Assembly (NCBI GenBank): GCA_905178155.1 | Contig: CAJINV010000001.1 | Location: 13,018,635-13,082,634, forward strand | Source of the DNA: Amoebophrya sp. A120 | Taxonomy: Eukaryota; Protista; Dinoflagellata | DNA length: 64,000 nucleotides | Reading direction: 5' to 3' | Shown here: positions 7,384 to 30,011 of the stretch, in pieces | Position numbering within the stretch: the first letter of the stretch is position 1 | How the letters are laid out: each line of letters opens with the position of its first letter | Program-made: the position numbers and the translations under genes | Notes under the pieces: model-generated | Database searches by the model: none | Told to the model about the DNA's origin: nothing | Seen by the model: the letters and a program-made list of their open reading frames with translations, nothing else

Positions 7384-9255
7384 TCACACCGGCACCGTTG
7401 CCGGGCTAAGGCAGAAGGGAAGACTTTTGCGCTGCTTGTCTGTCCAGACGTGCGGAGCAGTGGCCATGTCCGCCATTTTTGTTGCCGGGGCACCATGATT
7501 ACCGGCGTTGGCCACCGCGGTGGCGTCTGCCGTGCTGGTCGTCGACGCTGTGGTTGCCCATTCCATCGCGATCCCCAGCTTTGGGTCCCGCGTCAAGGTC
7601 GCTTCTAGCAGCAGGCTCTCTTCACTGCTGGCGCACCGCAGACAGGTCTGTAACTCGAAGAGCGGCTTACTCCACTGGTAGTCCAGATAGCACGTGAACC
7701 GCGCGTTAGCGTGCTTGTGCCCGCTGGTGACGCGGTTCCCGCTGGCCAGCGAATCCAGGAAAAAGCTGGCCCCGTGGTCCTCTTCGTGTCCCACGGAAGT
7801 CAAGGTGTCGCGCACGTCCTTGTTCCCGTCTACAAAATTGCGAAACGCCGCATAGAATTCCAGCAGGGTCGCGCGACTCGCCGTCTCCAGGTCGCCCGGC
7901 GTCTGCCCGGCCTGCTCGTCAAGGAGCAGCTTCCTGCGTAACGCCTCCATCTCATACAGCCCGACCACCGGCGTCCACTTTCTAGCGAGCGTGCGCTTGT
8001 TCAGTCCGCCGGAACCGCCCTGGCGATCGCCGTCGACCCCAGGCGAACCACTATCTCCTGCAATGGAACCACCGTTCCAGGCACGAAATGCTAAATGCAC
8101 CAGAAGGAAGAAGGCCACCTGTGCGACCACTAAGCAAGCGAGTTCCCGCCAGTGCTTCCGGAGGTGGTGACAAATCTCCGAGAGCCAGACAGGACACTTC
8201 CACTCCTTCACTCGGGATTTCATTTCCTCGGAAATGCGCCGCAACGGTACCGCCACGGAATTCTTCAAATCGTAGCCCGGAGAATCGACGTTCACATGCC
8301 AGACGTTATTGTTTCCGTTGTGCGAAGAACCATCGCCGGACAGTAGACCTCCTGACATCGGCGCATTCTCGTTTCCGCCGTTTTTTTCTAAATCAAAATG
8401 GAGCAGTCCGGCACGATTTCCTGTAGTTCCTGCAGAGGTAATATCCCGCAAAGGAAAATCCTCGTCGTCGTCGTCATCCACATGGCCCTCTTGCGACTGA
8501 AAGTCCAGAAGTCGTTTGCTCCGGAGGTCAAAATCCAGTTCGTCACAGAGTTCGTCCGCGTCGGAAGCATTGTCCAACAGGTTATACCCGTCTTTCTGGT
8601 GCTGCGTCACGAAAAATGCTTGCTCAACGACCCCACGACGTTCTCCTTTATTTCCTCCGGATTCGCCTGCTGGTTTAGGTTTTTTAACATTCTTGTTTAC
8701 TGCTGTGACAGAATCTTCGTCCTCTTCGTCCTCCAGCTGCAGATGCAATTCATGGATTGGCCGCAAAGCGTGCGTGATCTCGTCCTCTTCGTCGTCATCG
8801 CTGATGCACGCAAGCGCGCGTCGCTGAAACTCTTCCGTTCGTCCGTTCGGAAATTCAAACTCAGACCGATTCAGCTGCTGGCTGGTGTGCCTTGACACGT
8901 CGTGATTCAATTTCGACATCTGATCCTCCTATCCTGGAAAAAACACCCATCGCCATCCATTTTTTGCATGACAAATAGCGGATTTTATGCCTGTTTTGCA
9001 TGACAAATTGGATGGGGATGGGTGTTTTTTCCTGGATACCTCCAGCAACTTGACCTCGTCCTTGACGTGCACGTTCGTCGTGAGCAGCAGATTTGACGGC
9101 CTGAGTGTTGACGTCCCTGCACGTTGATGGCCTGCCAAAGAAGCCGCGGATTCCGAACCGGCGCTCTGGTGGGAAGAGGCCGTGTCTTCCATGAAAGAGG
9201 AAAGATTTTGAAACTCCCCCGCGTCGGAGGCAGTGCCCGACAAACGAATGGACAT
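7384..9255 (-). CDS. Hypothetical single-pass membrane protein (~585 aa), interrupted by an introner
   Basis: ORFs 8929..9261 and 7384..8919 join in frame (..VKLLE|DQMSKLNH..) across element 8930-9038; hydrophobic segment LACLVVAQVAFFLLVHLAF. Confidence 0.7.
8930..9038. mobile_element. Introner family B (109 bp)
   Basis: TIR tatcctggaaaaaacacccatcgccatcca / tggatggggatgggtgttttttcctggata; TSD CCTCC at 8925-8929 and 9039-9043; two GCATGACAAAT motifs; can be cut as a GT..AG intron using TSD bases. Confidence 0.92.
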
Positions 9256-10111
9256 GATCAATTTGTGCTAGGGAAATCGACTGGATTGTACTTGTAAATC
9301 ATCAAACTCATTCACTTTGCTACTCAACTGGACCAAAAACTACAACCGACAGACCAGAAGCAAAGCACGAAATTTGATGCAACTAGAAAAGACGGCTCCG
9401 AACAGATTTCGCTACGAAGATCAGTTTTTCGTTTGATTCAGACGGAACCATCGAGATCAACAGGAAGAGGATCTTGATCTTCAACTCCCAACAGATCAAA
9501 ACAGTAACAAAACAAGGCAACATTTTTACCACAACTACAAAACAAGGAACACAAAAACATGACCAAATCTGCGCAGTGTGGATGTGGCGTTGCTCTGGAA
9601 TGACCAGACCACTACTGTCCGACTTTTTTGGTTTCACTTTCATTCTACTTCGCCATCGCCACGATGGATCATGAACTTTATCAATTTTCCATATTGGATT
9701 TTCATCCGATTTTCCCGTGGTTAAAGGACAAAGACAAAGCCAGAACGTACACCACCGCTCTTTGGCTTTCCATTATCTCCTCCAGCGTTAATTTTTTCTT
9801 GAATGATAAATAAATTCATGATAACGTAGCTGCGAATCTTGACTCTGACTGTCTAGGAGGAGGCATTTAGAAATATCATAGATTCGTTTTCGTTGATTAT
9901 TGCAACGCGTCGCTCTCGCTGGTGCCCAAATTGTCGTTGGTTTTCGTCTTCAGAAGAAATGTAGATAATGCTGCAAGCGTAACCAATAAATTCTCACTCT
10001 GCAGCAAAATTAAGCGTTGTACAACTCACGGACTGGTGTGTCTGTGAGCAGAGTCGTTGTCGTAGCGTTTTTCTCTTTACAGAGCTAATCGTTGTTTATT
10101 TTATCAAAATC

Positions 10112-13100
10112 TTATTGGTACACTGGGTCGTCCGCGACGAACATGTAGTTTTTTGCGTTTGTGAAGGTACTCTTGTCCTGGATGCTGTCTGCGTGGTCCT
10201 TGTATTCGATCAAGGCGTGTTCGTCGAGGTCCAGAACCTGTTTCAGCGTCTCCCCGATGGTCATCTTCGCCGCGGAGTGGCGCACCCACAGCTGCAACAA
10301 GTCCACCTTTCGCGTGGAAACCATGCAGCCAACCACCTCCGGGGTGGCAAACTCTTCCCCGACAAGAGCGAACAAAAGCGCCTCCCACATACGGTTCAAC
10401 TTCTGTGAGATTTTTTTCATTTTTCTTCGAGTTCGTTTGAATTATAGGGAAGCACAAGATGTACCGGATTACGCTACGTACGCCATGTAGACAAGAAAAG
10501 GAAAAAGAAAATAGATGCGCGGAAATGATAAGAGGGCAATCACTTCTACGGAGAGGAAATCCAAAAATCAGACATGATGTAGCAGAAGTACTAGCTCTGC
10601 AATCGTTACAGCACGCTAAATTTTTCATACCTGCGTTTCCCCAGGGACCCGGTTGACGCGGACGATCCAGCAGCCTCCCTGTGGGTAGTCCTCCCACGCG
10701 GGACGGTGGCCTTGTCGAAAGCAGGAGAGACTCCGGTCCTTCTTCAACTCACTTGGTCGGTGCAGGAAACAGTAGTACCGAAAGAATTCCTCCACCGTTT
10801 CAAAAGTACCGAGCTCCGTGGTTCGATTGTGGTAAGCAGTTTCGCGGGCGTTGCTGCACAGGTTATTGCCTGATGTTGTTCCCGAAGCAGCTTCGGCATT
10901 TGATCCCGGAACCTCTGTCTCTCTTGCTGGCTGCGCATTGGTCACTCTTGCGTCTGCGTGATCTGCTCCATCAGTCTTAGATGAATGTTGCTCATCATGA
11001 CGAGCATCTTTTTCTTTGTGTGTCTGTGGATTTCCTTCTCGTTCCGCTGCGCCTGCAGAGGCGGTACCTACCGCCATCATGGTGCCACTGTCACTGGGGT
11101 TAGTTCCTGATACATTGGTTGCGCTTTCGCCTACCAGCAATTCTGCCAGGGAGATTTCCGTCGTGGCAGCACCTGGCGTAAACACTGGTGCGTTCGCAGA
11201 CAGCGATGTGTTTGGCGTAAACACCGGAGCATGCGCATTCAACGTAACTACGGTGCTGCTCGTCCTTGCGCCATCTTCGAGCGCTTGAGGCAACGGTAAA
11301 TCGCTCTTCTGGTTCTGCCCCCCAACCAGTGGACTACTTGCGGCATCCAAGCCAGGATTGCTACCGCACGGTGGTACAGGCTTGGCAGACGGTGACGGAC
11401 TGCTTGCAAAAGTGTTAAACACACTGTAGTCAAGGAATTTACCTCCCGCTGCCACGTACTCGGGCGCATTGGCATTCAAGCCCTGCTTCGAACACGAGGA
11501 GGAGGTGCTTGTGGAACTGCTGCTGCAGCTCCTGTCAGAAGTCCGCGAAGCTGGCACTACTGCAACTACACTGGGCTCCGGCGTGCCCGTAGGGTGAAAT
11601 TCCGGCGCTCCTGCGCTGAGTCGCGGGTCGGGAAGCTGGTGCAGGGAAGCAACTTCCTCTTCAACAAGCTCGTCACTGACCGGTTTTGATGCTTTTGGCT
11701 GCGCCTTGTCTACTTGTACCTCCGCTACCTGAGTTTCGTCTGTTGCACCTGTCGCGCCGCTCCGGGCTGGCGTCGATGGGCAACCGAGCGTCACCTCACC
11801 TACCCGCGCAAACGAACTCGCAGACGTACTGGCAGTGGCAGTTTCGCACTCGTTCATCTTCCCGTTTTGCCCCCCTCCAACATCCACCATTGGAGGTGCA
11901 GATGAAGGCAGTTGTTCGTCATATGCTTTGCCGGAACTTCTACAGCCATCTACTTGCAGTGGCGATTCATCGGCGGCTACTGTAGACGGTGTAGCGGCGA
12001 AGATAGGCAGGCGGTCAAGGTCACGAACACAGGCGTCACTGTCAGTATCAATGTCTTCGTGGCCTTCAAATAGGTCGTCAACAACCAGGTCGCGCGTATC
12101 GTCCTCGGGCTGCGGCTGACTTTCTTGACTTGTCACAGAACAAACTTCCTGTTTGTTTCCTGCCACGTCAGCTGTTGCCTTTGCCTCTGCCCCTCCGATG
12201 CTCGTTGGTTCCGCTTCTGAAAGTGTACATGAGGCCTCGTCCTTCTCGCTACCGTCGTCTTTGGAGGGGGCGCTGTAATCACCATGATCAACATCAATAT
12301 GGTCTTTCTTGTCTCCTGCGCCTCTACTTCCAGCCACATTTTCTTCCGGTAGCTCCACCGCTGCAGAGGAACTACTTGAGGTGGAGGATATTATCTCTAC
12401 TGGCTCTGTTCCTGCGCTGTCGGCCTTCTTTTCATCGCCGTCAACCGATTGATCCTCTGCTGGAGCTGCTCCTGCTGCAGCTGCTCTCGACGACGCGGAG
12501 ACGGATCCATTTTCTTGGTTCCCACGACCTCCTCCTGCAACCGGCGGGCGGAAGGCGTGTGCGCGATTCGGTTTCTTTGCGTAGGAGAAGGTCCATGGCG
12601 TCTCTAGCAGATGCTCCTGATAATTCGGCGCCAAATTGTTCGTGCGTGACTCGGTTCGTCCTCGTCGGGGGCTAGCGCAGGTTGAGGTGGAGCGATGCGA
12701 GGACGGTGGTCCTCGCGCCCCCGGCGGCTTCGTCGAACTTGCGGGCCGTGACGCAGAGCTTGTCAGTTGTGGTGCTCCGGAGGACCGAGAATCGGAACTT
12801 GTGCTCTTCGTCGAATTTTCTGAACACAAAAATCCTTGTTGCGAGCGTGAGGGCGAAGTAGATCGGTTTGTTCCGGCGTTCTTTCCCTTGCCACTGTTTG
12901 TCTTGCAGCTGGAGGTCGTGGTGATACCATTCGCGGGGTGTCCACCACCTTGTTGAGGATCAGAATTTGTAGTTGTAACAGTGGAGGGTATCTTCCAGAA
13001 AGGTCCCGATGGTCCTTTGCCCCCCGATGCGGATGCGGTGGCTGGATCCGTTTCTGCACTAGCAGCGCGAGCTGCTCGGTTTGCAGCTCGCGCCCCTTTC

Positions 13101-13687
13101 AGAGCTTTATTAGCACCGGGTGGCAATACCGGGGCTACTCTCTTCGGGGCTTTTGGTTCATCTTGCAGAAGAGGTTTGTTCCCATTTTTTACCAGCGGCG
13201 CAATCGGGGTTGGTGGACCACGGGGCGGATGACCGGCTGCGCCAGCTTTTGCAACTGCAAGTGGTGGTGGTGGCGGCACTGCGGCGTTTTCCTTTCCCTC
13301 CGGCAGCGACCGCGCGTCGTTGATTCCGATCGCTTGTGGCGGCCGACGTGGTGGGCCTCCTGGTCCTCCTGCGAGGAGCTTTTGTGCATACGACGCGATC
13401 TTGTTGCTTGGCTGGCTCGGGGGATTTTTCGGGTTGTTCGACGCCATCATTACCTCCCCCGAAGGCAAAGGCTTGTTGTTGTTCGGCTTCGCGCCTGCAG
13501 CTTTTGCTGCCCAAGACAACGTTGTTGATGTCTTCGGCTCTTCATTGCTGGCCGCTGCCAGCGCCGGAGTCGCGGTCGTTTTAGGAGAAGGTAGTAGATT
13601 CGGGCTCGACGTACTCGGACCTGGGCGGGTAGATGTGTCCGTGGTGCACTTGCTGCCGCCTTTGGGGCCCCAACAGACTTCCGGCAT
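10112..13687 (-). CDS. eIF4E-family cap-binding protein with long N-terminal extension and a ~600-aa PAM2-containing insertion; GT-AG intron 10403-10630
   Basis: eIF4E core motifs HLLETPWTFSY ... LGTFETVEEFFRYY..RPSEL..CFRQGHRPAWEDYPQGGCW | LNRMWEALLFALVGEEF..VVGCMVSTRKVDLLQLW; phase-0 junction CAG|gtatga...cacag|AAG; start codon uncertain. Confidence 0.88.
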
Positions 13688-15277
13688 GATATCTGGTGTC
13701 GGTGGAGGCAATAACTGCAACTGCAAGAAGGCACTACTATACCAAAGTCAAAAGCGTAATTACGTATGGATAAGCGGTTCCTTGAAGAAAAGTGATTTCT
13801 CACTGGGGATTCAAGTTAAAGCGATCGACGAATAAAAATTGTTCAGCCTTCTAAGAGATTCAGTTTTTCTTTTTACAACAGCCTCGAAAATTTCATCTCC
13901 AACACCTTGATCATATTTCTGACTTCTGTCTGACAGAGAGAGATAGATGATGGTTGGTCAAGAAATGCGTATCATGGTGCCAGTAGCGAAACTGCATCGC
14001 TCTGCTTTTTATTTTTCTAGCAGATATGCTTCCCATCAATAAAAATTCAAATTCATTATGATCTTGACCTTAATATTTTTGTGGGTGTGATACTCCGCCC
14101 TCTGCTTCTGCAGCAAGATACACATTACTAAGTACAAGCAGATGGACCTCTTCGTTTGACAAAACATTTACAACATTGGTGGACCTCCATTTGATCTACC
14201 TTGTTATTGTTTGACGTGAGTTTCATTCTGATCTTGATCATTTTTTCGCTTGTAGCTTCGTCTTCAACCGGATCGGATGGTTCCTTAATTTGAGAAACTT
14301 CTGACAGAATCTGACTAAAGCGTCGTCCGGCGCTGCAAATATCGACAAAAAAAATAAGGGCGACACCACAAACTGATGACATGAATCAATCCTCGCGCGG
14401 AACAATTCAAATGCGTGCCGGTCATGGTGACCTTCTGTTTTTCATGTTCAGTTGTCCTATCCGATCGCGACTTTTGTATTACTTATGTTTAGTCTTGGTC
14501 TTTGACAACATTTTCCACATACGGATGGACAAGGATATGCTATGACTATGCTAAACCAATAAACTTCCCTACAATTATGCTATGGGTATGGAGGTGGTGA
14601 TATTCATTCTTATAAATATGTGGTCATTGTTCATCATGCTCATGCTGAGGACACTGAGAGAATTAGAAACGTCTCCTGTGGTACCTGTGGAAACAAGAAA
14701 CAATGAAACAACAGTTACGATTTCTTCGTCGATTGAAATGGCAAGAAAAAAATACGACTCATGATTCTGTGCTGGCGGATAGGCGAGTTCCAAAAAATGC
14801 AGCCACATCATTTTACGTTTACGTCTATTTTTGTTTTTCTTTTTGGTTTTGCGGTCCATTTGAATGAGGATATGATGAGGATATTTCATACTTCATCGTT
14901 TACGTTAGTTATTCACTGAAACAGGCATGTACTACTGCTTTCAGAAACCGAAAATTTGAAAAGATTATCTGCCATATACGAGCTTTGATCCTTTTCCTCG
15001 TATACTGGTCTATGACTTCTATATCAAAATCAATCACAATCTACTTACTTATCATGCAGACGTGACCAACAGCACCAAGTTGCACTGTTGATGGTGCCGC
15101 CGGGCTTTGACTTTGATCACATGCCTTTCTTTGTGTTTTCGGAGATCGAGATACATGGCGATGCGTAGAAAAAAACTGCGTACAAATATCTGTAAGAACG
15201 ATGAGAGTGATACTTTTACACGCTTCGGTACTAAATACCAGACCGCCTACACGTCGGCTATGCTGTCCTCTTTTTTC

Positions 15278-18200
15278 CTACCATATCGTCGAGAAGCGCT
15301 TTCCCCTTCCGGAATCGTTGGCGTTATTAATATGGTGCTTCTTCATCAGCTCAGCACCTCCACTGCACTGACCTCCGAACGACATCAACGCCCAGGTGTT
15401 CATCATTTTTCCCGCCTCGCACTGGTTCCAGCATTCGCTAGTCAGGGTTAGCTCCACATGGCGGTCCAGATTAAAACCCGCAAGAATCTCAATCATGTCG
15501 TCGATCGGCCACGTACTACTACTAGCACCCATCCCTGGAACTCGTTCAAAAATGATGCGGTCGGCGTCATGTTGACCGACACACACGGCCAAAATTTTTG
15601 CGACCAGTGCCTTGAACTCCTGTTTTTTCGCCTCGTCGCAGAACCGCAGAGTGCCGTCGTGTGGGTTTTCAAAGACTTCTTGCTCCTGCGGACGATGATG
15701 TTGATCCTGATGACGCATGCTAGTATCAAGAGAAAAACAGCAGTTCAGAAGATCAAACGGAATCGGTGTTGGCAAAAACGGCGCGCCATACATCAGGGGA
15801 GCACGGATCAAGGCCAAATCCTTCATGTGCACAAACGGTGTGGCTCTGGCTCTTTCGACAACGTCGACGTGATCCTCGTGGTAATGGAATTTTCCCTGCA
15901 GCAGCTGCTCTTTCGCCAAAGAAAACGATGTGCGCAAGAGCAGACTATCGGTGTTTGGTGACAAGAGTTGGGAAGTCTTGTTCTTCAAAGAGTTGTTGAA
16001 GTTTCGCCAGTCTCTCATCGCTGTCGACCGTTCAAATTCACCCAGCGAACAGCCTGAAGAGAGAGGACCATCAGGTAGTTGTACTCGGGGCTCGTGGTTC
16101 AACATCGCCATGTGCATCGCAACCGCCGAGAGAAATTCGTATGGGTTCGCGAACAAGGAACCTGTCGCAAAATTCCGACTCTCTTGCTGCAGATAGCTGG
16201 CATCTGACGGATGAAACACTTCGACTTCTCGTCGCTCCACATTCCTGGAGGATGAAAGGTTGTTCATCTTGTAGTTGCTGCTGTAATTTCTTCCGTTTCC
16301 CGCGCCGCTCGTTGTGTTCAGCCGGAAACCATCAGATTTGCATGTCACACGCAGTTCGTTCTCCATCTCATGCTCGGCATGGTGAAAGTCCGCGGCAGCT
16401 GGTACTAGCAGCTTTTCGAACTCGTGCATATCGGGAACAATTCGAACAATCACCGATCGTTTGGGCCGAGTACCAACAATCGAAGGGGAAGAATGCTGCT
16501 TGTTCTGGTTGATCCGATTGAAATTGGTTGTAGGAGCTCTAAGGTCGTGCGTCGTCATCATCTCGTTGTCTTCCGCGGCGAAATGCTGCTCCATCAAAAC
16601 GTCGCAACTGTTCTTCAGTGCCAGTTTCAATGCCGGCGGAGCTTGACTGCGACAGTACGAATGGTAGTTCTGCGCGCGAGGCGAGTGCAACAATTCCTGC
16701 ACATCAGTGCTCTTAAAACCCAAGGTTTTTCCGTGGGTGAAGGGGTTCCAGTGGCTCGCGTTTTTATCCACCAGGCTGTTCATCATGATCTGCGGGTATA
16801 ATTCATAGTACCGTGACATGTCCAACGTCATGTTGTTGCGATCTTGATACCACTTCTGCGAAAACGCGGGACTCTGGTCCCAGTAGTTCTGGTTGCAGTT
16901 CGTCTGCGATTGTTCTTGCTCCTGCGGCTGCGGCAGAAACGGGTTGTACAGCCTCTTGTTCGCATTCTGCATCCCTGGCGTCAGAGTCTGTTGGAACAAC
17001 GGAGTGGAAAACTCGGCGCAATTGTTCGTTTGTGTGGCTGTAGAGCAGCAGGTCTTGTTGCTTCTCATATTCATCATGATCGTGTTGCCATTGTGAAGAT
17101 TGCCATGCTGCGGAACAAGACCTTCCCGTCCCATAGCGGTGCTCATCTGCGACGAAACGAAGGGGTTCCGTAGAAAGTCGCCAGAAACAGGGTTTTGGTG
17201 GTGCTGGACGGCTGCACCCGGGAAGGAAGAGGCAAACGCAACCGCCCTGGCGGTCCCACTGGCAGACCGCCGTGCTGACGCACTCCTGGTGTTGTTTTTG
17301 TTACCGAACGAAGATGACAGCGTGTTGGGTTCCCGGTCCAATGCGGTCCGCGGCGACCCTGAGCGCGACCGAGACGACGAGCGGCGCGGCATACTGTTGG
17401 CGGCTCCGAAACTCCGCATCAGGTTGATGTCCGCGCCACTGTTGTAATTCCGTCCAGAAAGCTCGTGCACTAAATCGCGCGTATCCACGCTAATACTCCG
17501 CCGATTGCGGGAAAGCAGTGCCGTGTTAGTTTTCACCAGTAAGTCTTCGAAAAAGGGATCGGAGGAAGGCGTATGGAAGCGTCAGGTTTGAAATCGTCAA
17601 AGTTGAAATAATTTGTAATGCTAAACCGACCGAAACCACTACACAACCTGTAAGGGCACCGAACCGCACGTGGTTCGGCCACCAGGTCGCGGAGTCAGGC
17701 GGACCGAAGCCATCACCATCATCTGTAATAATTTGTAATGCATAAAATGCATGGCCCGAGGTGCGTGCGTTGCAGAGCAGGCAAGTGAGGCCAATTGTAA
17801 GCCTGTTTGGGGCTACAGCTCGAGCTGCTAAAGTAGCATGAGAAAACCACTCTTCTTTGCCTAAACAGCATGACAAACTGGATTTAGGGACCACCGAAAT
17901 TTGTCATGCGCCACTTGGAAACTGGGTTCCAACTGGCATCCATTTTATGCATGACAAATTATTTCAACTTTGACGATTTCAACTCTGACACATCCATAAG
18001 GCGGAATCGAAATTTCGTCGTCGTCAAGTGTGCGGCTCAAATAATCCGCAACAGACCCTGTGTCATTTTTTGCGAGTTCGGAGTTCCACGGATCTTCGCG
18101 TCCTCCGGTCTTGTCGGCGTTGAGAAAGCGCTGCAACTGCTGCTCCTGCTCATAATGGTGGTGCATCGTGGTCTGTACCTGCTGCTGGTCTTGCATGGGC

Positions 18201-20950
18201 AGAGACAAGCGGCGCGCACCGAAACGCAGGGAGCGACCGCCCGACATGTCGGTCCCTTTCGGCGCGGACGAGGACATGGGGCGCGAAGGTGGGGTGGGCT
18301 GAAAAATACTGCTTCCACCACCCAGAAGCATTGCGCCTTGATCGTGAAGTTGATGACCTCCAAACCCGTCCGTGTTGCTGTTGTTCTGGAACATCAGCGG
18401 CTTGTTCACGTTGCCCATCTGAAGTTGCGCGGCCTGGTCCCGCACGATTTGGCCCACCTGGCGCTGAATGAGATTTTGCGCATACTCGGCGATGTGGTCG
18501 CGGTGGTCGCGGATCATTTGGTCAACTTCTTGTTCGACCGCCGATCCGACCATCTGCAGTTGCATTTCATGCGAGGCGGATAGCAAGTCCCTGTCCCGGC
18601 CCGCGGCGAACTTGTTGTTTAGAGAAAACCGCCTTGTAGCGCCAGTACTTGAACAATAAGGTTGTTGGTCGTGTTTTGCACGACGAGCTAAATCTTCGCC
18701 GTGTAGACCTCCGCGTCTAGTACCCTCTTGGTCGTCGCAGGCATCAAACGAGCGGTAGAAGCCGCTACCCTTGACAAACCTCGTAGCCTTACCGAAGTCG
18801 TACATGTCGACGTTTGCCATATCAAACGGCCCGTTGAAATCCAGAGCCACGTCGGTAGCGCGGACTTGCGGTTGCAGAGTGTTTCCGTGGATGAAGTTCT
18901 GAAGGTTTTTGTTTCTGTTTGCTGCATTCTCTGCACGACCACCCAGCTTGCGCATGAACGTGGCGTCCAATCTGCTGGGATCGTAGAGCGTCACCGAAGG
19001 GTTTTGCAAGTGCGAATGGATCTTGGTCATCTGCTGTTTGTTCCCGCCCTGCTCAGGGTGGTAGCATCCGTGTTGAAAGGCTTGCAAGGTTCCGGTTGCA
19101 AGGGCCACTAAGACCGCCTGTAAACGGGACAGGGGCTGCAGTGAATGAAAACTGTCGCGAGAGTCGACGTCTGCCTGGCTGTCGTGATGGTCGTTGATGT
19201 TGAGTTTTGGCATCTTCATCATATCGCTGCTGTGAAGATTCTTCATCGTGTGCTGCAAGTGGAAGTGCTGGGCATCAAAGTCGAACATCTTGGACTGCGA
19301 CATCATCATGGCACTTCCCGCCACGTCGTCGTGAACGCCTCCAACCTTGCTGTTCAAGAGCAGCTCCTGCGTGCACGAGCGCAGATGCTCAAGCCACACG
19401 GCGGCTGGCACCAGGCGCCAGTCCCGGGGGTCCGCGTGAAACTGGAGCAGCGAGGAACAAACCGTATCGTCGAGAATGCAACTTTTCGAGACAAACGAAA
19501 GCCGCTCCACAAGTTCGTGTGGCGAAAGGTCGTGTCGAGATGAGATGAGTCCGGGATTCACGTAGATTTGCACCGGCCGCGGAAGAGTTGTGCGAGTTGT
19601 CGTTAACATCAAGCGAGGCGTCATGGAGGAAATTCCCGCGCAAGAGGAATTCTTCATCGTGCTGTGCTGCATCATCGTGCTCCAGTTCGTGTCAAGAGCA
19701 CTGTAGCAGCCCCGGTGTTCGTGTTCCGCGTGCTGGTCCCGCCGGTACAACCGCTGCTGTTCGCCATCCAGCTGATAATTCTGGTCGTTTTGAAGCCGGA
19801 ACGACCGGCTGCCTCCGTGCGGGACTGGATCAATACTGTTGTTTCCGTACAGCATCCCACCCACCAGCGGGCGCCACGAAGATTGCTTGTTTGAAGTAGC
19901 CGCGGGCCCCCCAGGGTGTGTCTCCGTTGGAATAAAGAAGTGCTGGTGCTGTGTGCCCGTGAGGCCACCAAGTCCCTGCTCGGAAGGGGCTGCCACAGGA
20001 GACACTGTGCTGCTGGTGATACGCCGTGGAGTGAAGAAACCTGTGCTCGGTTTTTGCTCAACATCTCGACCACGGGCACTGCCGTACGCGAGAGGTGGCC
20101 GTGGCGGATAGTCGTGGTGCTGGTGCTGGCGATCGCCGCCCAGAGTGTGCTCCTGAGCAGAATTTCGAATAGCGGACGAAGAATTGATGTTTCCCCCGGC
20201 CAGACGCGGCGATATCATGCACGCAGGTCCTCCAAGTGGTTGCGGGCCGCGATGCTGCTCGCGGATGTTCCGCATTCGTTCGGCGCTGCGGCCCCGGGGA
20301 GACTGCAGTATCGGCAAGTGGATCCGCGGTAAATGCATGCGATCATGCATTACCTCCATCTGCAAACGCTCGGCCTCGTTTTGAAAAGAGGCATCGTTGT
20401 CGCGGATCATGCGTTCCCGACCCGACTTTGGACTTCCCTTGTTGTACTCGTCGTATTGCAACAAGGTGGGGGCAGCAGCAGAACGCGGATGCGTCTGCTG
20501 CGAGTGACGGTGTTGTTCTTCGGCCGCTTCGGAATAGGAATACTGCTCATGGTGCCCGCTGCGAGAATGATGACTTTCGACACCGTTCCCGTTCGCATGA
20601 ACATGATACTGGTCGGACGATGAATATTTGCCGTGTTGAAGGGCGGAATAGTCATGAGGAACTACCTGGGTAGACTCGTGCTCCGGAAGATTCGAGCGGC
20701 CTTCGTCCGTGCCCAGCATTGTCGAGTAGAAGTCATCATTTTTGTTGGAAGAATACGCCACAGGCTTGGATGTTTCCGAACTCTGCTTGTACTTCGTACC
20801 AGCGTGCCAGGAGGTCGCTTGTTTGTCGTAGTTAGCATCACGGTCCTGGCTTCTTCCACCGCGGGAGGAACCTTGCTGAGCGCTTCGAGCGGTAGCCGGC
20901 CGAGCTCCGGCTCCAGGGTCCGTGTACTCTTGGCGCGAACGCCACGACAT
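15278..20950 (-). CDS. Hypothetical ~1746-aa low-complexity protein split by an introner
   Basis: ORFs 17945..20950 and 15278..17536 share a frame; removing 432 bp (element + TSD) gives ..EISIPP|SSDPFFEDLLVKTNTA..; no family recognised. Confidence 0.7.
17572..17998. mobile_element. Introner family C, long copy (427 bp, carries a nested 120-bp insertion)
   Basis: TIR tatggaagcgtcaggtttgaaatcgtcaaagttgaaata / tatttcaactttgacgatttcaactctgacacatccata; TSD AGGCG at 17567-17571 and 17999-18003; interior homologous to the copies at 27480 and 29048. Confidence 0.92.
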
Positions 20951-22263
20951 CTTGTTGAATCTTGATGCTCCTAATGCAACGCTCCTACGTCGTGGTCCTA
21001 GTTCTAGTACCTATTGCTCTTGATTTTGATTCTAGTACCTTTATGCTTTATAATCCAGTTGTTGTGGGGGTGAACAGCAACAGACTGTACCCGTACTTCG
21101 CTGCTGCTGTAGCTGTAGGAGGTATTAACGAAACAAATGCGTATGTGGAGTAGTAGCGAAATGAATTTGATCGCGTTCGTTCAAAAAAAAAAACACGGAT
21201 CACCGAAATTCAGGAGAAGAAGAAAAGGGAAAGTAAAACGCTTTCCTTCCCGCCAAAGAGCAAAAAATTCAAAGAATGAATTTACTGCACCTGTTGAAAG
21301 AAGAAGAACAAGCTCCGATCGTGTAATAGCCTCATGGTCATGACCAGCACAGCAAAGCAAAAAAAACGAACCGAGGGGCCGACAGCCGCAGCGATCCAAA
21401 AAAAAAAGATGAAGATCCAAATTTGTACAGCGTAGGCCGGGAGCGGAAAAGTGAAGAACAGCATCAAAAAAAAAAAGGAAATACACACACACACACAGTA
21501 GCACAATCTCAAACCTGTCAATCAGGTTGATGTCAGAGAAAATGTAAGTAGCTGCTCTCTTCTTGTCTCGTATCTGTACATCATACACTAGAAAAGACTC
21601 TCCGCACAGCGCGATCTGCAGCAGATTTTCACGCTAGCGTAAGAAGTCGTTGTCAACCAGACATGTTGGTGCATCGGAAGCAGATTTTAGCATGTGCATC
21701 TTTTTCCTGTGCTTTCTTTCCTTTCCAACGTATGACACACAACATGACAAATGTATTTTTTCTTTCCTCGCAGTGGCGGTCGACGAATGAAATCCAGAAG
21801 AAGGAAGATCGAGGTCCTTCTGTCTCTTCTGAAGCTTATGGCTTTGAAGGCGAAGCGTGCGGCTTTCTATGACTATGCGCTTGTTTCTCACTGTGGTTCG
21901 TGGCTCTTCGTGTACTGGCAGCATGTGCATATTGGCGGCGTCATCACGACACGGAGGAGAGCGCTTTTTTGTTTCAAGTTTCGCAACAATTTCTTCACAG
22001 TTTTTTGCTTCTGTTTCCAGAAACGAAAATCGCTAATTTCTTCTGTAGTTGTAGCAAAGGCCAAGCGACAGGTCTTTCACACGCGGCTTAGCGCTAGAAG
22101 CTACCGTTCTTGCTGCACCACGTTCTGCTTGTTCCACCGACTGCCCATGTACATCTTGCAGCTTTCATCATCTACTTCAATAGCAACCGCTCCCGTAACA
22201 GGTACTTCCTCAATCATCACACAGGACACAATTACTGGAGCCGGTTATCTTGTGCCAAAGATT

Positions 22264-25200
22264 CTAGTTATCGTCGCCATTTGTTGCATCGTCTTGACCG
22301 CCATGCTCGCGAGTTCTGCCCGGGCTTCGTAATCGGGCCGACGACGTTGGTGGGGATTTCCTTGCGCTCTTTTTCGAGGATGACGACGCTGCAGCGCCTG
22401 GCATTGGTGATGCTGATCTTCTGGCTTGCGACAGTTTGCTGCTCGACTTCTTGTTACCAGCTGAGGACGGAACACCTCCTGCTAGGCCCGTCGTTCGCGT
22501 TCCCGTCGGGGGTGGTGATGGCGGCGGACTCGGGGACGACGAAATCCTGCTGCTGGTGCTGGGTTTCGGTGAAAAAGTTGGACTAGCCTTACTTCTCGTC
22601 GCACCAAGAGCAACACTCGACGAGGGTCCTCCTTTGATGGCCGACGAGGCGGAAAATCCAGAAGATCCCCGAGCGACGGGTGGTCGCCGAGCCGAGATTT
22701 TCGCCAGGGCCTCAGCGCTTGCAGAGGCAGCGCTGCTCCGGACCATTGCATTGCTAGATGTACTACCACCTGAGGGTCGTGGGGATGAGCCCTTTGCAGG
22801 CGCCGGGCTGCGACGAGTGGATGTAGAAGTGACCGCTGTTCCGTCACGCACACTCCTGGACGAAGGTGTGCCTGCGCGCGCACCTGCCAATGGTGTCGTT
22901 TTCGGGCGCGGTGCGACGCTGTCCTGCGAGGATCGTGCACTGGAAAGGCTTCCGGAGGATTTCGATTTTATCTTCTTCTTTCGCACCAGACCACTGGTGG
23001 CAGCATCTACTCCGTCAGGAAGCTTGCTCTCAACAATGTCTTGCGGATCAGAAGTGATAAATTCAGCACGCGCGACGCCGGCGCCCAGGGGAAACGCCTG
23101 CTGTTCCGGTACTGAGACTGTGGCTGCCCCTATTACGGACGTTGGCGCTTCCTCGTCGTCCAAGGCGGGTACAAGTGCCTCAACACCGGGAGCAAGGAGA
23201 TTCAAGTGCTCGTCCTGTAGTTCACCAGTATTTCGCTGATGCTCTTCGGCAGAGCGTGTCGCTGGTGAAGAAGTGTGCGCGAAAATGTGATCAGCTAGAC
23301 GAGAGTCCGCGGCCAGAGCCTGGTCGTATTTCCGTACAACTCGCGGGTCTTCGTGTGCCTCGTCTGGGAGATGATGTGCCCCTGCAGCCGAACTTTGTGG
23401 CGGAGAAAGTGCAGCGGCAGCACTAGTGTCCGCTGCTCCTGATGAAGTTGTTTCTGGTCTTGTTGCTGCATCTTCTGCTTCAGCGTCTTCCGGAGCGCCA
23501 CGCGCAAAGCCATCGTCACAAACTGCAGTGTTGGCGGCGTCGGCGATGGCAGTATCGACACTTGGGCCTATTGCGGCTGAAACTGCAGCGGGGGGTGTCG
23601 TGGAGGAGTCGAGGATCAGGCTGTTCTGTTCTACTGCCGGCGCACCGAGGCTGCTCTGTTCTCCTCCAAGTACACCGTCAACAGTGCCGAGTTGTAAATG
23701 CACGTGCTCCTGCTCGTGAAAATGCTCGCCTGCTGCACCGAGATGCAATGCCGTTGCGACGGGTTCTTCAGGCGTTTGCTCTACTTCAAAGTGGACTGAC
23801 ACAGATTGCGGAAATGGAGGGGGTGGAACGTAGTGAGAATTCGTGCCCGCATCTTCGCCCGCGTTGTCGGTGTGCTCAGGTCCTGCTACGGCTTCCTCTG
23901 TGCCTGCTGTGCCTTCACGACCGGTTTGCTTTTCTTTCGTTGTGTCGCGGTCTTCGAGCGACAGTCTTGCGCCAAGCAGTGGAACTACTAGGGCTTCATC
24001 TTCGCGCACGCTACCACTTCGCTGCTCCCCCCGCTCCTGCTGTTCCACTTCGAGCAAGTTTTTTTCGAGATCGACGCTGCTGTCTTGGAGGCCAACTCGC
24101 GGCTCGGACAAAAGCCCTTGTCGATCCGCTGCAACCTCGTCGAGGACAGACAACGGAGACTGGGCCTCGCGGGCCTCGCTGGATTTCATGCTCCAGGGGG
24201 AGAATAGCCTCGACCAGATAGGTAAGCGGCTCCCCGGCGAGGAGTCCGAGCGGTCGACCGACGCCTCGGCGTAAGAACCACCTTGGCCGCGCGCTCCGCT
24301 CGGGGGCGCACCGGGAGAACCACCTGTAAAATCGATACTTGCGAGGAGTTTTCAAGGAGAATCATCATGTCCATGTGGCCTACAAATGCCTATGGTGCCG
24401 CCAAGTCGAATTTGTTGATAAATAAAGGAACATCAAGTTGTAAAGAAGTACCATATTCGCTTCCACCGATGGTGGTGACACCGTCCCCGACCGACTCGCC
24501 GCGGGACGAGCCGCATGCGGCGCCGAGCAACAGAAACGCGAGGGCGACCAGAAACAGCATCGGGAGAAAGGCTGCAGCTCCTTCGAACGCGAAGGCTTCG
24601 TCCACCCAGGCCAGCGGGTCAAACCCGCGAGAGGGGACGGCCACGCGGTGGTGCTCCTCCGCACTTTCATTAGCGTCAACGCAGTAGTCCCAACGCGGAT
24701 ACCAATGGAATCCTAGAAGTGACAACGCGGAGCTCTCTGGACAGGAAATCGGGTCCACGGCGCACCACTGGTAGGAACGCCTGTAAAAAAAGGGTTGGGT
24801 TTTCTTTCAAGAACAAGAAGGACTTTCACTTTTATACGTAACGAATTCTTGTTGATCTTATGCAAGTGCCGCCCTCGACGTCAGAGCACAGTGTGATGTT
24901 CGTTATCGGCACCAAAAGTCAACAAGTACTAGCTTGTTGTACTTGTACGTATAGACTTACTTGTTACCCTGCGTGCTTGCATCCGTAATTGAGGAAGCAG
25001 TTTGCTCCAAGAAGCCAGTCATCGCAGTTCACCCATTGAGGCTCGCACTGGCAGCCCAAGGTCGTGGTGAAGAAGCGACAGGTATCCGTAGCGATCCAGT
25101 TGCCATCGTTTTGACACTCCGCAACTGGTGAGCCAGTATACCCAAGTTCGCAAACAAAGGCGATTCGTTCACCGGCGTAGGAACTCTTCAACACGAGGTG

Positions 25201-28200
25201 ATGGTCGTGGTCTGCGCGGCTCGCGTTCTTGTCTGCCGATGGTGCGGAAGTGGCCTGTTCTTCTATCGCGGAAGTCTCCGAAAAGGCGTGTGGTATTCTC
25301 TCTGTTAGAATGATCGAAGTGCTCTGTAGTTGGGCGGCGGCACCGGCAGTTCTATTTATCGGATGCTCAGGCAATCCAGATGTTGGGACAGCTTCACTTG
25401 CTGGCAGATGGTTTCCCTTTGTGTCCTGTCGCTGTTCCTGTTGCATCGCTTGAGCATGCTGCTTCTCTTGTGCGAGGTCGTCGCTTTGGCTTTTTTCGTT
25501 GGCCGCCGCCGGAGCCGCCGCGCTAGCACTTGTTACACCACCAGCGTAGTTCATCGGGTGCTGGTCATTGGTCTTCACGATGGCACGAGCGTGTTGTAGT
25601 TGCGGAGGGTGGACCCCGCAACCGACCAAATCGCAACCGCCCTCAATGGTAAACGCACCGCTGACGGAGCACCGCGCTTGCACGCTGCCCGTGTAACCGG
25701 GGTTGCAAGTGTAGTGCACCACCTCCCCCGCGGTCCACACAAATTTGTCATTCAGCGAGTGGTACCCATTGTCCAGGTGCATGGTTCCCCGCCTTGTGTG
25801 GTCGCCGGGGTCCACCTTGTAGATCGGGTTCGCGTTGGGTATTCTCGGCGGGGCCCCGCACCCGACCACCGCGCACGTGCCATCCAGGCCAAAACACCCA
25901 TCCCCATCCAATTTGTCATGCAAAACATGCATCGCAAGTAGTGTTTGTCATGCAAAAAAAGGATGGGGATGGGTGCTTTTTTCTGGATACGTGCCCGCCA
26001 CGTCGTACACCAGCGACGGATTGCAGGTCACGGTCGGCTGCCCACGGTAGCCGATGTTGCAGGCGAGCTGTGTCTTACTGCAGATGCCGTTCTCCTGCGC
26101 GTCGATCACCGAAGTGTGGGGAACGGCCGGAAAAGCGCCTTTGCATTCCACGTTGTACCAATACGCGTTTCCCACGTCCTCGCGGTTGTCGGGCTGCAGC
26201 GTGTACAGCATGAACAGAACCAGAACGAAGGACACCACGACTGAGATCACGCTGCGCTTCAGAAACTTGCGGCAGTTCCGCACGCGCCGAGCGGTCAAAA
26301 TGCGCGAGCAGCAAGTCGTCGTGGTGGAGGTGGTGGCTGTATCGCTGGTCTGCGGTGCGATGCTGGTCCGACGTCCGGCCGCGTCTGATGCAGACAGCCA
26401 GGGAAGGCAGGACGAGGAAGTTGACGATTGTTTGCTCCTGCAGCAAGAGAAACAGGAAACAAACGGCGCGGCAAACCATGAAAGGACTCTGCCAAGACGC
26501 GACGAAGAACTCGTACCACTGTCTTCAAGATCTTCCGGGTGGACCTCGTCTCCATTACCATTACGGGTGCCATCTCTATTCTGATCCAGAATAACCATGT
26601 CAGATTTTGGCTCGGAGAAAGCAGATGCTGGCGCAGAGGAACTACTGGACGAATCCTTTCCAAAGCAACCGCCCCGGAAACAGGCACAGAGCCGATCGCT
26701 GATTCGCAAGAACAATGGTCGCGGTGCAGCTCCGGCGCTGGATATGTCTCCCGGCTCATCGCTGCCGTGAGCCCCTTCGTCGTCTGCGCCATCAGATGAG
26801 GACGCGCTGCTCAAGACTATCCCCAAAACATTCGACGAACCCGCCCGTTCCGTCGTGAGCATACGTGGCTTTTCCGCACCGTCATCGTTGCCGGAATCTT
26901 CGCTTCGACTTTGGTCCCGCTCCACAGACCTGACCGTGACTTTTTGATCCCTTCTTCTTGTCATGCGACCGCTTTCCGCTCCTGCGGGGGTGGGGCCGCC
27001 ACCTGGTGGTACCCCTGTAAATGCCGCATCATCTCGTCCCCCATGCGCAGCGGCCGTCGCGAGATCGAAATAGCTCGAGGAGCTGCTGGCCGTATTGCTA
27101 GCGCTATTTGATGTTCCCACCTGCTTTTTGCTTTCGTGTTCTCCGGCCATGAAAGAAAACCCGTCTGCGGGTGCGCTGCTGAACCGCCCACGACCAGTCT
27201 GCTCTAGAGTCCGCGTCGAACTCGTTGCACCTCCATGCTGCTCCCGCATGGAAGCTGCTGTTCTACTTGAGGCCGCTGCTGCCGTGGTTGCAGCTTCCCG
27301 CCACCGTCGCGGTCTCGAGGAGGTTCTTGACCGAGCGAGTTTGACGCGACTCCCGCTCTTCGAGTCTGCGGCCGCGGCGCTGCTGCTCTCGATCAGGTAC
27401 CGAATCCAGGTATCCGTCGCAAACACGATGCGCTTGTTGGGCGCGGCGCGGATGTCCTCCGGGGACCGCGACATGACCGTATGGAAGCGTCAGGATCGAA
27501 ATCGTCAAAGTTGAAATATTTTCTCATGCATAAACTGCAAGACCTGAAGCGCCTCTCTTGCAGGGATGGCAATTGAGGCAGATTGTGAGCCTATTTAGAA
27601 TTTGGGATGGAGCTGCTAAAGGAGCATGACAAAAGCAGCCTTCTGAGCTCAAACAGCATGACAAATTGGATTCCGTTGCTCCGAAAGTTTGTCATGCGCC
27701 GCTTGGAAATTGGGCTTCCGACTGGTATGCATTTTATGCATGACAAATCATTTCAACTTTGTCGATTTCAATCCTGACGCTCCCATAGACTGTCGCGTAC
27801 ACGTACTGGCGCAGCGGCACCAGGTGCTGCTCGTTCGGATTCTCCTGGAAGTTCAAGGTAGTCCCGACCACGAAGTCGTCCAAGCCTTGGGGCGGATACC
27901 GGGGCGGATTCTGAGGGACGAAAAGCTCCTCGGCCGGCGAGCTCACGGTGGTGCCCGGCTTGCTGTTGTTGGTGCTTTTGCTGTCGTTTCGAGTGAGCGC
28001 GGGCGGGACCCGGTAGAAGGAGGAAGTAGTTGCAGAAGATGAAGCTGTCATGGCTAACTTCGTGTTTCCCGATGTAGTTCCTGGTGGCGGTTGTAGTGGT
28101 GCGCCACCACCGGCACCCTTGCTCTGCTCTGTGAGCCATTGCGTCGCGGCCTCTGGTGAGACGCTCAAATACACATTGTGCACCGGGTACGCGAAGAACG

Positions 28201-30011
28201 CGTGCACAATGGCCAAAATCGGCACTTCGAGCACGGTCAGAAAGGCGTACAAGTAGTACGCCTCCCACTGCAGATAGTAGCCGCAAATCACGTAGCGCAC
28301 GATCAGCCATTGGGTCCAGGTGACAGAGACGACCCCCTTGACGCCGAAAAATTTCCAGAAGGGATCGACCAGGGACAACTCACCGTGAAAAGCGCCCTCG
28401 AAGACGAACACTGCGTAGATCGCGGCCCAACAGAAGAGCGACAGGATCAGTGCCTGGTACGGCCCAACGTACGTGTCCCACCAGGTGACACACGTATACT
28501 CACAAGACTGCAGTAAGTACGGGCACAAGGTTGGAAAATGGATCCCGAGAAGCCCCTTGACGATCACCTGCAGGATGTTTGACAACATGCTGGCCAGCAC
28601 GTAAAGCTGCAGCACCGCGAAGCAGAACCGCTGAAACGAGGTCACCGCGCGGTCCTGCAAGCTCAAGCCCGCGCCCGGGGAAGAAGCCATAGTTCCCGCT
28701 GCGCCGAGCGTGGTCGTCGTCCTTCCGCCACTCACATAAAAGTCGTCGCGGTTGGTGATGGTGAACTGTTCCCGACCGGAAGGCGAGTTCGGCGATGTTG
28801 CCGCGCCTGGCCGCGGTCGTAATGCAGCTGCCGACGCTCCTGCTGCACCTCCTGTTGCGCCGATCATCGCAGTACCAGTAGAGCCCGCCAGTAGAGGCTC
28901 TTCCAACGGGGAGCTGTGACGGCTGGACAGCATGCCCCGAGGACTGATTCGCGTCACGCGGCTGGGGTTCGGATTTTTCGACAAGTTGTCTACGATGCCC
29001 GTGAACATGGTCAGCACGCTCCACAGGGCCCAGGCTTCCCAAATGTCTATGGAAGCGTCAGGTTTGAAATCGACAAAGTTGAAATGATTTGTCATGCATA
29101 AAATGGATACCAGTCGGAAGCCCAATTTTCAAGCGGCGCATGACAAATTTTCGGAGCACCGGAATCCAGTTTGTCATGCTGTTTGGGCACAGAAGACGGC
29201 TTTTGTCATGCTCCTTCAGCAGCTCTATCCCAAACCCTAAATAGGCTCACAATCTGCCTCACTTGCCATCCCGGCAAGACAGGCACTTCATGCCTTGCAT
29301 TTTATGCATGACAAATCATTTCAACTTTGACGATTTCAATCCTGACAGATCCATAATGTCCGCTGTCTGGATAGTCGTGTCCGCAACGGCCAGACGCGCG
29401 GCGTCGCGCTCGCCCGCGAAGGGGTCATCCAGACTGATGAAGTAGGAGGAAGCAGAAGACGCAGGATGAGTATTGTAAAAGCTGCTGCTGTCCTGTGCTG
29501 CAAACATCGTCGTCGATTGTAGGGGACTGGTAGTGCTGCCCGTACTACCACTTCCACCAAGATGTTGACCTCCGGTTGTATCGTAGGATTCCCCAAAGAA
29601 GCGACTCAGGAACTCTCGCTCGACGTTGTGTTGGCCCCCTTCCAGCTGCTGACCGAGGATCCGAACCGTGTGGGCCATGAGCAATCCGTAGTTCGCCGGA
29701 AGAAGCACCATGTCCATGATCTGGTCAATGGCCTTTGGCGCGTACTTCCGCAGGTGCGACAGTTGCCATAGTTCGACAAAGGTGACGAGCATGACAAAGG
29801 TCATGGCGATGTGCACGGCGATCATCAACCGCGTCCAGCCGACGAACAGGGACAGAATCAGCAATTCCCGTACGTAGAAGAAGAACTGCGTGCCGAAATG
29901 CAGCCAGAACCACCGCTTCTTGAGGCAGTCGCAACAGGTGCAACACTTCGGCGCATACCGGATCAGCACGCTGATCAGCATGAAACCCGTCACCCAGAGA
30001 CAGACCAACAT
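22264..30011 (-). CDS. Large multi-domain membrane protein: OST-alpha/TMEM184-like domain + TM + three Sushi/CCP domains + Cys/Trp module + TM + low-complexity tail (5' end probably further upstream)
   Basis: ORFs 29316..30011, 27734..29125, 25948..27474 and 24964..25932 join in frame when three introners are removed (ADI|WEAWALW, ATV|MSR, VAGT|CAVVGC). Motifs WEAWALWSVLTMF and FWKFFGVKGVVSVTWTQ resemble TMEM184; CCP repeats CNIGYRG, CNPGYTG, CELGYTG. Downstream exons (24390..24758 region, and 22264..24323 after tttacag) are joined by inferred ordinary introns. Confidence 0.65.
25881..25989. mobile_element. Introner family B (109 bp), opposite orientation to the 8930 copy
   Basis: TIR catccaggccaaaacacccatccccatcc / ggatggggatgggtgcttttttctggata; TSD CGTGC at 25876-25880 and 25990-25994; contains an in-frame stop; removal restores the Sushi domain end. 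Confidence 0.92.
27480..27787. mobile_element. Introner family C (308 bp)
   Basis: TIR tatggaagcgtcaggatcgaaatcgtcaaagttgaaat / atttcaactttgtcgatttcaatcctgacgctcccata; TSD GACCG (27475-27479) / GACTG (27788-27792); removing 313 bp restores the frame. Confidence 0.92.
29048..29355. mobile_element. Introner family C (308 bp), inverted relative to the 17572 and 27480 copies
   Basis: TIR tatggaagcgtcaggtttgaaatcgacaaagttgaaatg / catttcaactttgacgatttcaatcctgacagatccata; TSD ATGTC at 29043-29047 and 29356-29360; removing 313 bp restores the frame. Confidence 0.92.

Follow-up and report, generated by a model that had tools for sequence, protein, structure and literature searches.

Introner elements of Amoebophrya sp. 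A120 are removed in either orientation together with five flanking nucleotides and with no requirement for GT-AG

The question raised by this locus is how intron copies of one family can be removed from a sense transcript whichever way round they lie in the host gene. The DNA analysed here (the window) is a stretch of 64,000 nucleotides (nt) from the dinoflagellate Amoebophrya sp. A120 (assembly GCA_905178155.1, contig CAJINV010000001.1, positions 13,018,635 to 13,082,634 of the forward strand), which carries introner elements of two families, B and C, among others. A sequence-only reading of it had proposed that both families are tolerated in both orientations within minus-strand exons whose frames are all restored, and that removal is defined only by symmetric information, i.e., the stem of the terminal inverted repeat (TIR) and the TAT/ATA ends, which would argue for a structure-guided or transposase-derived mechanism. 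We have found that indifference to orientation is genuine and well supported in a system that was already known, to which no new element is added. The elements, their TAT starts, the repeats, a hairpin model and the missing U1 are already in Farhat 2021 (PMC7789003). No statement about orientation was found in the available text and supplement text of that report (its figures S19-S25 may bear on it), nor any about orientation neutrality of the A120 elements in the available text of PMC9860276, PMC12130899, PMC11282704 and PMC11453091 (Huff 2016, Henriet 2019 and Roy 2023 may bear on it).

Self-comparison and boundary analysis gave one build for nine elements of the window: TAT...ATA ends, a TIR and, directly outside, a 5-nt direct repeat, the target-site duplication (TSD). 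The five copies of families B and C are the following.

8930..9038, host on the minus strand: family B element, 109 nt, TAT...ATA; TSD CCTCC at 8925-8929 and 9039-9043
25881..25989, orientation opposite to 8930: family B element, 109 nt; TSD CGTGC at 25876-25880 and 25990-25994
17572..17998, orientation as 27480: family C element, 427-nt variant; TSD AGGCG at 17567-17571 and 17999-18003
27480..27787, host on the minus strand: family C element, 308 nt; TSD GACCG/GACTG, with one mismatch
29048..29355, reverse complement of 27480 in the same gene: family C element, 308 nt; TSD ATGTC at 29043-29047 and 29356-29360

Orientation was judged on the interiors alone because the element ends are symmetric. 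In family B, GCATGACAAA occurs twice on the plus strand in 8930-9038 and TTTGTCATGC twice on the plus strand in 25881-25989; the global identity of the pair is 84.7% as reverse complement against 74.1% in direct alignment, and the 41-nt interior by itself scores 36 as reverse complement against 13 direct, with a maximum of 18 in 300 shuffles. The family C copies 27480 and 29048 are 90.6% identical as reverse complements and 66.9% direct (interiors 282 against 33), whereas the interior of 17572 matches that of 27480 directly (138, against 29 as reverse complement) and that of 29048 as reverse complement (162, against 28 direct). The orientations proposed from the sequence alone were therefore correct in all the pairs compared by interior score, and the minus-strand assignment of all five host frames was borne out as well.

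Further copies came from 19 extra loci (L001-L019, 88 kb) of another assembly, picked by one exact 26-nt family C pattern on both strands; the same pattern gave 0 matches in viral contigs. These loci hold 63 elements found by strict criteria and 3 by BLAST, and the resulting catalogue has 75 copies with lengths of 109-764 nt. The host strand was confident for 57 of the 75, the other 18 being dropped from the dinucleotide counts for weak strand calls; a regional strand score, which agrees with all 57 confident calls, recovered 17 of 19 unassigned copies, giving 74 stranded copies. Among the 57 confident copies the families have 2-15 members each. The strict finder misses older copies, so that the catalogue is biased to young ones. 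Of the candidates that combine a strong TIR with exact TAT/ATA, 55 in all, 40 match at 4-5 of the 5 TSD bases, none at 3 and 15 at 0-2. The 57 insertions fall in all three phases (15, 21 and 21).

Family C copies lie 7:8 by orientation to the host among the 57 confidently stranded copies, and 12:11, with one unsure, after the regional strand score, close to the 50:50 that had been expected, over the window and the 19 loci. Both orientations were found in 8 of 10 multi-copy families among the 57. On a family C tree of 22 copies (excluding 17572, L016 701 and L006 2538) orientation requires 9 changes, against 7.6 with shuffled labels; orientation is thus unclustered on the tree, and is therefore redrawn at every insertion.

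Removal was followed over 16500-30500 in contigs of X1 and X4, X1-X4 being presumed RNA runs (as two skipped GT-AG introns support). The genes, frames and canonical introns concerned are these.

22264..30011, minus strand: host gene of 25881, 27480 and 29048; its product of 2,230 aa matches Ostalpha (PF03619) and Sushi (PF00084)
24324..24451, minus strand: canonical GT-AG intron of 128 nt, same transcript as 25881, 27480 and 29048
24781..24967, minus strand: canonical GT-AG intron of 187 nt, same transcript
15278..21010, minus strand: frame hosting 17572; with the element removed, some 1,766 codons are open; no Pfam match
7384..9255, minus strand: gene hosting 8930; its product of 585 aa has no Pfam match

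One X1 contig of 8,191 nt (depth 114.7, no other letters) skips 25881, 27480 and 29048 plus the two GT-AG introns, which fix the minus strand and identify the contig as a processed transcript; members of both orientations are thus absent from a single transcript contig. The joints, present in X1 and X4, are 25874/25989 (114 nt skipped), 27474/27788 (313 nt) and 29041/29355 (313 nt), and one X1 contig of depth 7 skips 17572 at 17565/17998 (432 nt). In 4 of 4 transcript-covered copies, with four different TSDs, the skip equals the element plus 5 nt. The translated X1/X4 joints are identical to P0001 of Amoebophrya sp. A120 over all 2,230 residues, and the alignment to P0002, a relative with 54% identity, runs through the three element sites with no gap. 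For 8930 the removal comes from public annotation, where protein P0004 is the product of removing element plus 5 (114 nt) and not the +2 or +8 product; a relative, P0005, gave no reliable alignment across this site (E 0.074). The products of the element host genes match Amoebophrya sp. A120 proteins. As to the frames, they are indeed restored when the element is removed with one copy of the 5-nt repeat, and not when the element alone is removed. Across the catalogue, too, the +5 frame class scored best for 59 of the 75 copies, and the other two classes for 10 and 6 (codon model trained on the window). At 27480 the transcript retains the base of the upstream TSD copy at the mismatch, so that the cut comes no earlier than just behind position 2 of the sense TSD; since this mismatched TSD is skipped, perfect repeats are not required.

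Three explanations do without a removal signal in the RNA. Reverse transcriptase could jump across the hairpin between the direct repeats while the RNA keeps the elements (falsitrons), and both the anatomy known for that artefact (PMC8240250) and a record made of cDNA assemblies only would suit it. However, a falsitron leaves the gene functional with the segment kept, whereas here any of the five copies, if retained, would bring in a stop or break the frame, and yet the proteins are conserved across three sites; in addition, three skips, one of them at a mismatched TSD, lie on one contig of even depth. We regard this artefact as very improbable. Hopping of ribosomes over a retained hairpin between matched codons would profit from a 5-nt duplication that always contains one whole codon, with all three phases represented. 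Nevertheless, that codon takes in 12 of 17 TSD mismatches (10.2 expected), of which 6 affect its first or second position, and the transcript contigs are element-free, for which reasons this bypass, the least credible of the explanations, was rejected. Finally, the signal could be read on DNA, either by precise excision from a transcribed DNA copy or by a TIR-binding protein that marks the element for co-transcriptional removal. The stems have no sense-strand excess of G-U, and a subterminal motif and one position, both described below, are common across families like a protein-binding site. Against this, the elements are kept in the assembly, and X5 and X6 contain 0.95 of the words of 24000-30500, compared to 0.83-0.84 in X1-X4, which is the exon share. 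No second nucleus is known in this lineage, and we consider a DNA-level signal or excision unlikely.

What, then, sets the cut sites? The 5-nt duplication gives six possible registers for each intron, and GT-AG is possible in any of them in 3 of 57 copies, against 3.1 expected from random TSDs; for G[TCA]-AG the values are 8 of 57 and 7.8. Six of the 57 have neither a GT/GC/GA donor nor AG, and the TSDs of the 57 copies contain no excess of GT/AG. All four transcript-covered copies are incompatible with GT-AG in any register, 8930 being the sole one of the five named copies that can be read in this way. GT/AG dinucleotides do not place the cuts. It is this missing dinucleotide requirement, more than the tolerance of both orientations, that argues strongly against conventional cut placement. 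Tolerance of both orientations does not by itself speak against splicing by the spliceosome: in Aureococcus and in several classes of Polarella, GT/GC/GA-AG introns are reported to arise either way (10.1101/2020.10.14.339549). That each orientation carries its own conventional splice signals, as in those introners, is an alternative that the sequence-only reading had itself raised. It could draw on the GT-AG reading of 8930, on the motif CTGAC, whose A sits 11 nt before the 3' end whichever way the three family C copies of the window are read, and on the T tracts found in many 3' arms, but its dinucleotide version is largely refuted by the four transcript-covered copies and by an overall count at the level of chance, and we consider it improbable as a whole. 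An ab initio search for canonical introns, from which the branch consensus of the organism was to be obtained, made 82 calls that shared no end motif, did not hit the exact ends of either known intron, and was discarded.

The claim that symmetric information alone defines removal stands in part: an asymmetric interior and conventional dinucleotides are excluded. However, whichever way an element lies, its two ends receive the same 14-62 nt (the range of terminal pairing in 57 copies) from the inverted repeat, and a directional signal within that repeat would therefore be present in both orientations and survive flipping.

It is likely that the distance to the hairpin, and not the normal splice signals, determines the cuts. 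The reading that we prefer, with a probability of about one in two, is that copies resembling miniature inverted-repeat transposable elements (MITEs) are removed with one TSD copy by a spliceosome devoid of U1 that measures both cuts from the paired stem. Insertion would be due to a cut-and-paste transposase acting in trans. In the pre-mRNA, the inverted repeats, which pair in the predicted fold, would form a stem holding both ends together in vivo. The cuts would follow a fixed register, 0-3 nt before TAT on the 5' side and 2-5 nt after ATA on the 3' side (bounded by one copy), catalysis would be carried out by U2/U5/U6 with the stem substituting for U1, and the two ends would be read with polarity, the A three bases from the 3' end being a candidate branch or recognition base. 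Orientation would be irrelevant because everything read sits in the inverted repeat. In favour of this reading are the skips of element plus 5 nt, the gap-free alignment across the large gene, the +5 frame scores and the TSDs free of a GT/AG excess, all given above, together with the pairing of the ends and their like fold strength on both strands (29 against 26 of 57). Folding energy did not differ between sense and antisense (32/55). The canonical introns in the same transcript as the elements support the involvement of the spliceosome. So do the reported presence in A120 of all but 6 of 89 spliceosomal proteins and of U2/U4/U5/U6 but no U1, and the same layout of inverted and direct repeats in 15% of canonical introns (Farhat 2021, PMC7789003), as well as the MITE-derived non-canonical introns of Fritillaria, reported to be spliceosomal (review PMC11282704).

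Some end variants might reveal the polarity. Among the 74 stranded copies the outermost end base has 4 changes at the 3' end (to ATG) and 0 at the 5' end, and the third end base 4 changes at the 5' end and 0 at the 3' end, in four different families each time and counted post hoc. One of the window copies, 25881, starts with CAT on the plus strand, and its sense 3' end is therefore ATG, not ATA. A pattern so uneven has a chance of about 1 in 64, and a strand-wise mutation control was even (A>G 15, T>C 16). Among TSD mismatches at positions 2-3, also a post hoc count, the G is in the downstream copy in 8 of 9, and in all 17 mismatches the split is 10 against 3.

Several observations weigh against a stem-measuring spliceosome. 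These end variants and the TSD G pattern hint at a polar reading, but as small, post hoc leads and not results, and a search for missed copies gave counter-examples: L018 has a right end GTA (3537), with the left end not found and the copy apparently inside another intron, L012 has a 3' ACA, and L014 has an upstream G at TSD position 3. No branch motif shared across families was apparent from YTRAY, a generic motif and not an A120-derived consensus, which was found in the last 50 nt of 23 of 57 copies against 23.2 in shuffled sequence; CTRAC was in excess (19 against 4.6), largely from the 15 family C copies. Moreover, a stem of 25-60 bp would hide any branch site. The stem bore no mark of selection at the RNA level (70 G-U, 74 A-C), a result that fits a DNA-level repeat equally. 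Similar introns of Euglena are thought to use separate machinery (PMC12501133). Lastly, the entire RNA evidence consists of cDNA assemblies, and at the 19 extra loci removal is deduced from frames.

The main rival, in line with the sequence-only reading, is a spliceosome-independent RNA nuclease-ligase, Euglena-like or related to a domesticated transposase, which would read the stem and TAT/ATA, make a 5-nt staggered cut and join the exons. It agrees with the missing dinucleotide rule, the lack of a shared branch motif and the even orientation counts, its constant 5-nt offset would equal the insertion stagger, and U1 was not found in A120 (PMC7789003), which together with the Euglena parallel leaves room for it. 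Yet no such enzyme has been identified, the end variants look polar, and agreement of the offset with the TSD is to be expected in any case, as removal of a different length would alter the protein. DDE transposases act on DNA. We found no evidence for a transposase role in removal, although no test was aimed at it. No transposase was found in A120 by Farhat 2021 (PMC7789003), but integrase-like TIR families are described for it in a later paper. A120 may, then, strip tens of thousands of transposon copies from nuclear pre-mRNA by a second, spliceosome-independent system that sets a staggered 5-nt cut from the stem base and accepts any TAT...ATA stem, orientation or target, but we rate this as less likely than not. 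If it were true, each insertion of this class would be neutralised at once.

The subterminal motif GCATGACAA was found, with at most one mismatch and on either strand, within the final 90 nt in 37 of 57 copies of otherwise unlike families, and A at position 13 of the two ends, also common to unlike families, in 56 and 57 of 57 copies. Motif and A13 are likely a common transposase-binding site.

Further elements and other features of the window and of the extra loci were noted. Additional members of the class in the window are on one line:

5762-6177, 52314-53077, 53987-54247 and 62114-62564: further TAT...ATA elements with exact 5-nt TSDs

Removal of the element at 5762 restores a 776-codon minus-strand frame, and relatives of those at 53987 and 62114 are present among the 19 extra loci. 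Relative to the remaining copies of family C, 17572 has some 119 nt more, and a stretch of its terminal repeat recurs at 17724-17753 (window 17626-17753). A 310-nt inverted repeat at 46197-46506, with CAG...CTG ends and no TSD, was placed outside the TAT class, and 54745-55607 (GAT...GTC ends, exact 5-nt repeat, overlapping long frames) is a doubtful candidate. At the extra loci, single open frames of about 990 and 520 codons in L001 1697-3282 and L002 655-3052 contain five and six elements respectively, and removal of element plus 5 restores the frame in every case. The older copies L005 795-973 and L014 2641-2814 match at just 2 of 5 TSD bases; in the former the phase still fits element plus 5 by eye, and the downstream TSD copy reads AAG at positions 1-3. 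L006 2538-2848 and L015 1759-1947 have a 3-nt insertion in the right repeat beside the end, a multiple of three that a stem ruler could tolerate, the two cases being non-discriminating. An array of palindromic tandem units at L015 5328-5816 adjoins an unpaired family B-like left end at 4995. Every frame of the window longer than 320 codons lies on the minus strand, including a 1,040-codon frame with PAM2 and eIF4E matches (10625-13747, minus) and a SAM-domain frame (1757-3829, minus). There is an exact 34-nt direct repeat at 45229-45262 and 46617-46650, and patches at 39775-40925 and 55482-56517 are 67-70% identical, suggesting a paralogous gene pair.

More than 60% of A120 introns are reported to be without GT-AG, and with U1 missing the splicing route is an open question (Farhat 2021, PMC7789003). 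It is narrowed here to testable rules, namely removal of element plus 5 nt, indifference to orientation and target, and possibly polar end bases, and the opposite-orientation twins 27480 and 29048 in one transcript serve as natural controls for each other. Confirmation of a stem-guided spliceosome or of a separate enzyme would account for the tolerance of every exon insertion of this class and for the spread of such elements over 17% of the assembly. Introner pipelines that demand same-orientation matches, as described in PMC12130899, would split these families.

The closest known system is that of the A120 introner elements themselves (Farhat 2021, PMC7789003), for which TAT starts, inverted and direct repeats, non-canonical ends, a hairpin model and no internal transposase are described. 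Our copies have end-pairing inverted repeats, direct repeats at the boundaries, repeated occurrence and non-canonical removal (by transcript in 4 of 5 copies), and they are also MITE-like in being short, with a TIR, a TSD of fixed length and many copies. The differences are of rule: the direct repeats are given there as 3-5 nt with variable positions and variable splice sites, whereas here a single rule holds, a 5-nt TSD directly outside TAT...ATA. Of the published inverted-repeat pattern (TAT, seven variable bases, AAA), TAT is found in 54 of 57 copies and A at positions 11, 12 and 13 in 40, 40 and 56 of 57, family C having TCA instead. In Aureococcus anophagefferens and Polarella glacialis (10.1101/2020.10.14.339549), TSD-bearing elements likewise become introns both ways, but GT/GC/GA and AG come from the element end plus TSD and particular TSD letters are needed, while the TSDs here look unselected and the 57 copies are at chance for both dinucleotide classes; Polarella is also reported to favour one orientation, in contrast to the even family C count. 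The nonconventional introns of euglenids (PMC12501133; PMC11282704) have in common with these elements direct repeats, a terminal stem set a few bases in from the cuts, the lack of GT-AG and a likely MITE origin. They differ in their CAG/CTG motifs and boundary consensus and in leaving as circles, the ends here being TAT/ATA; the available text of PMC12501133 has no mention of orientation. Finally, the MITE-derived introns of Fritillaria borealis (Henriet 2019, via PMC11282704) have a TIR and TSD and no GT-AG, and are reported to be removed by an altered U2 spliceosome; they prefer the ends AG-AC and AG-AT, whereas in A120 no dinucleotide pair is preferred.

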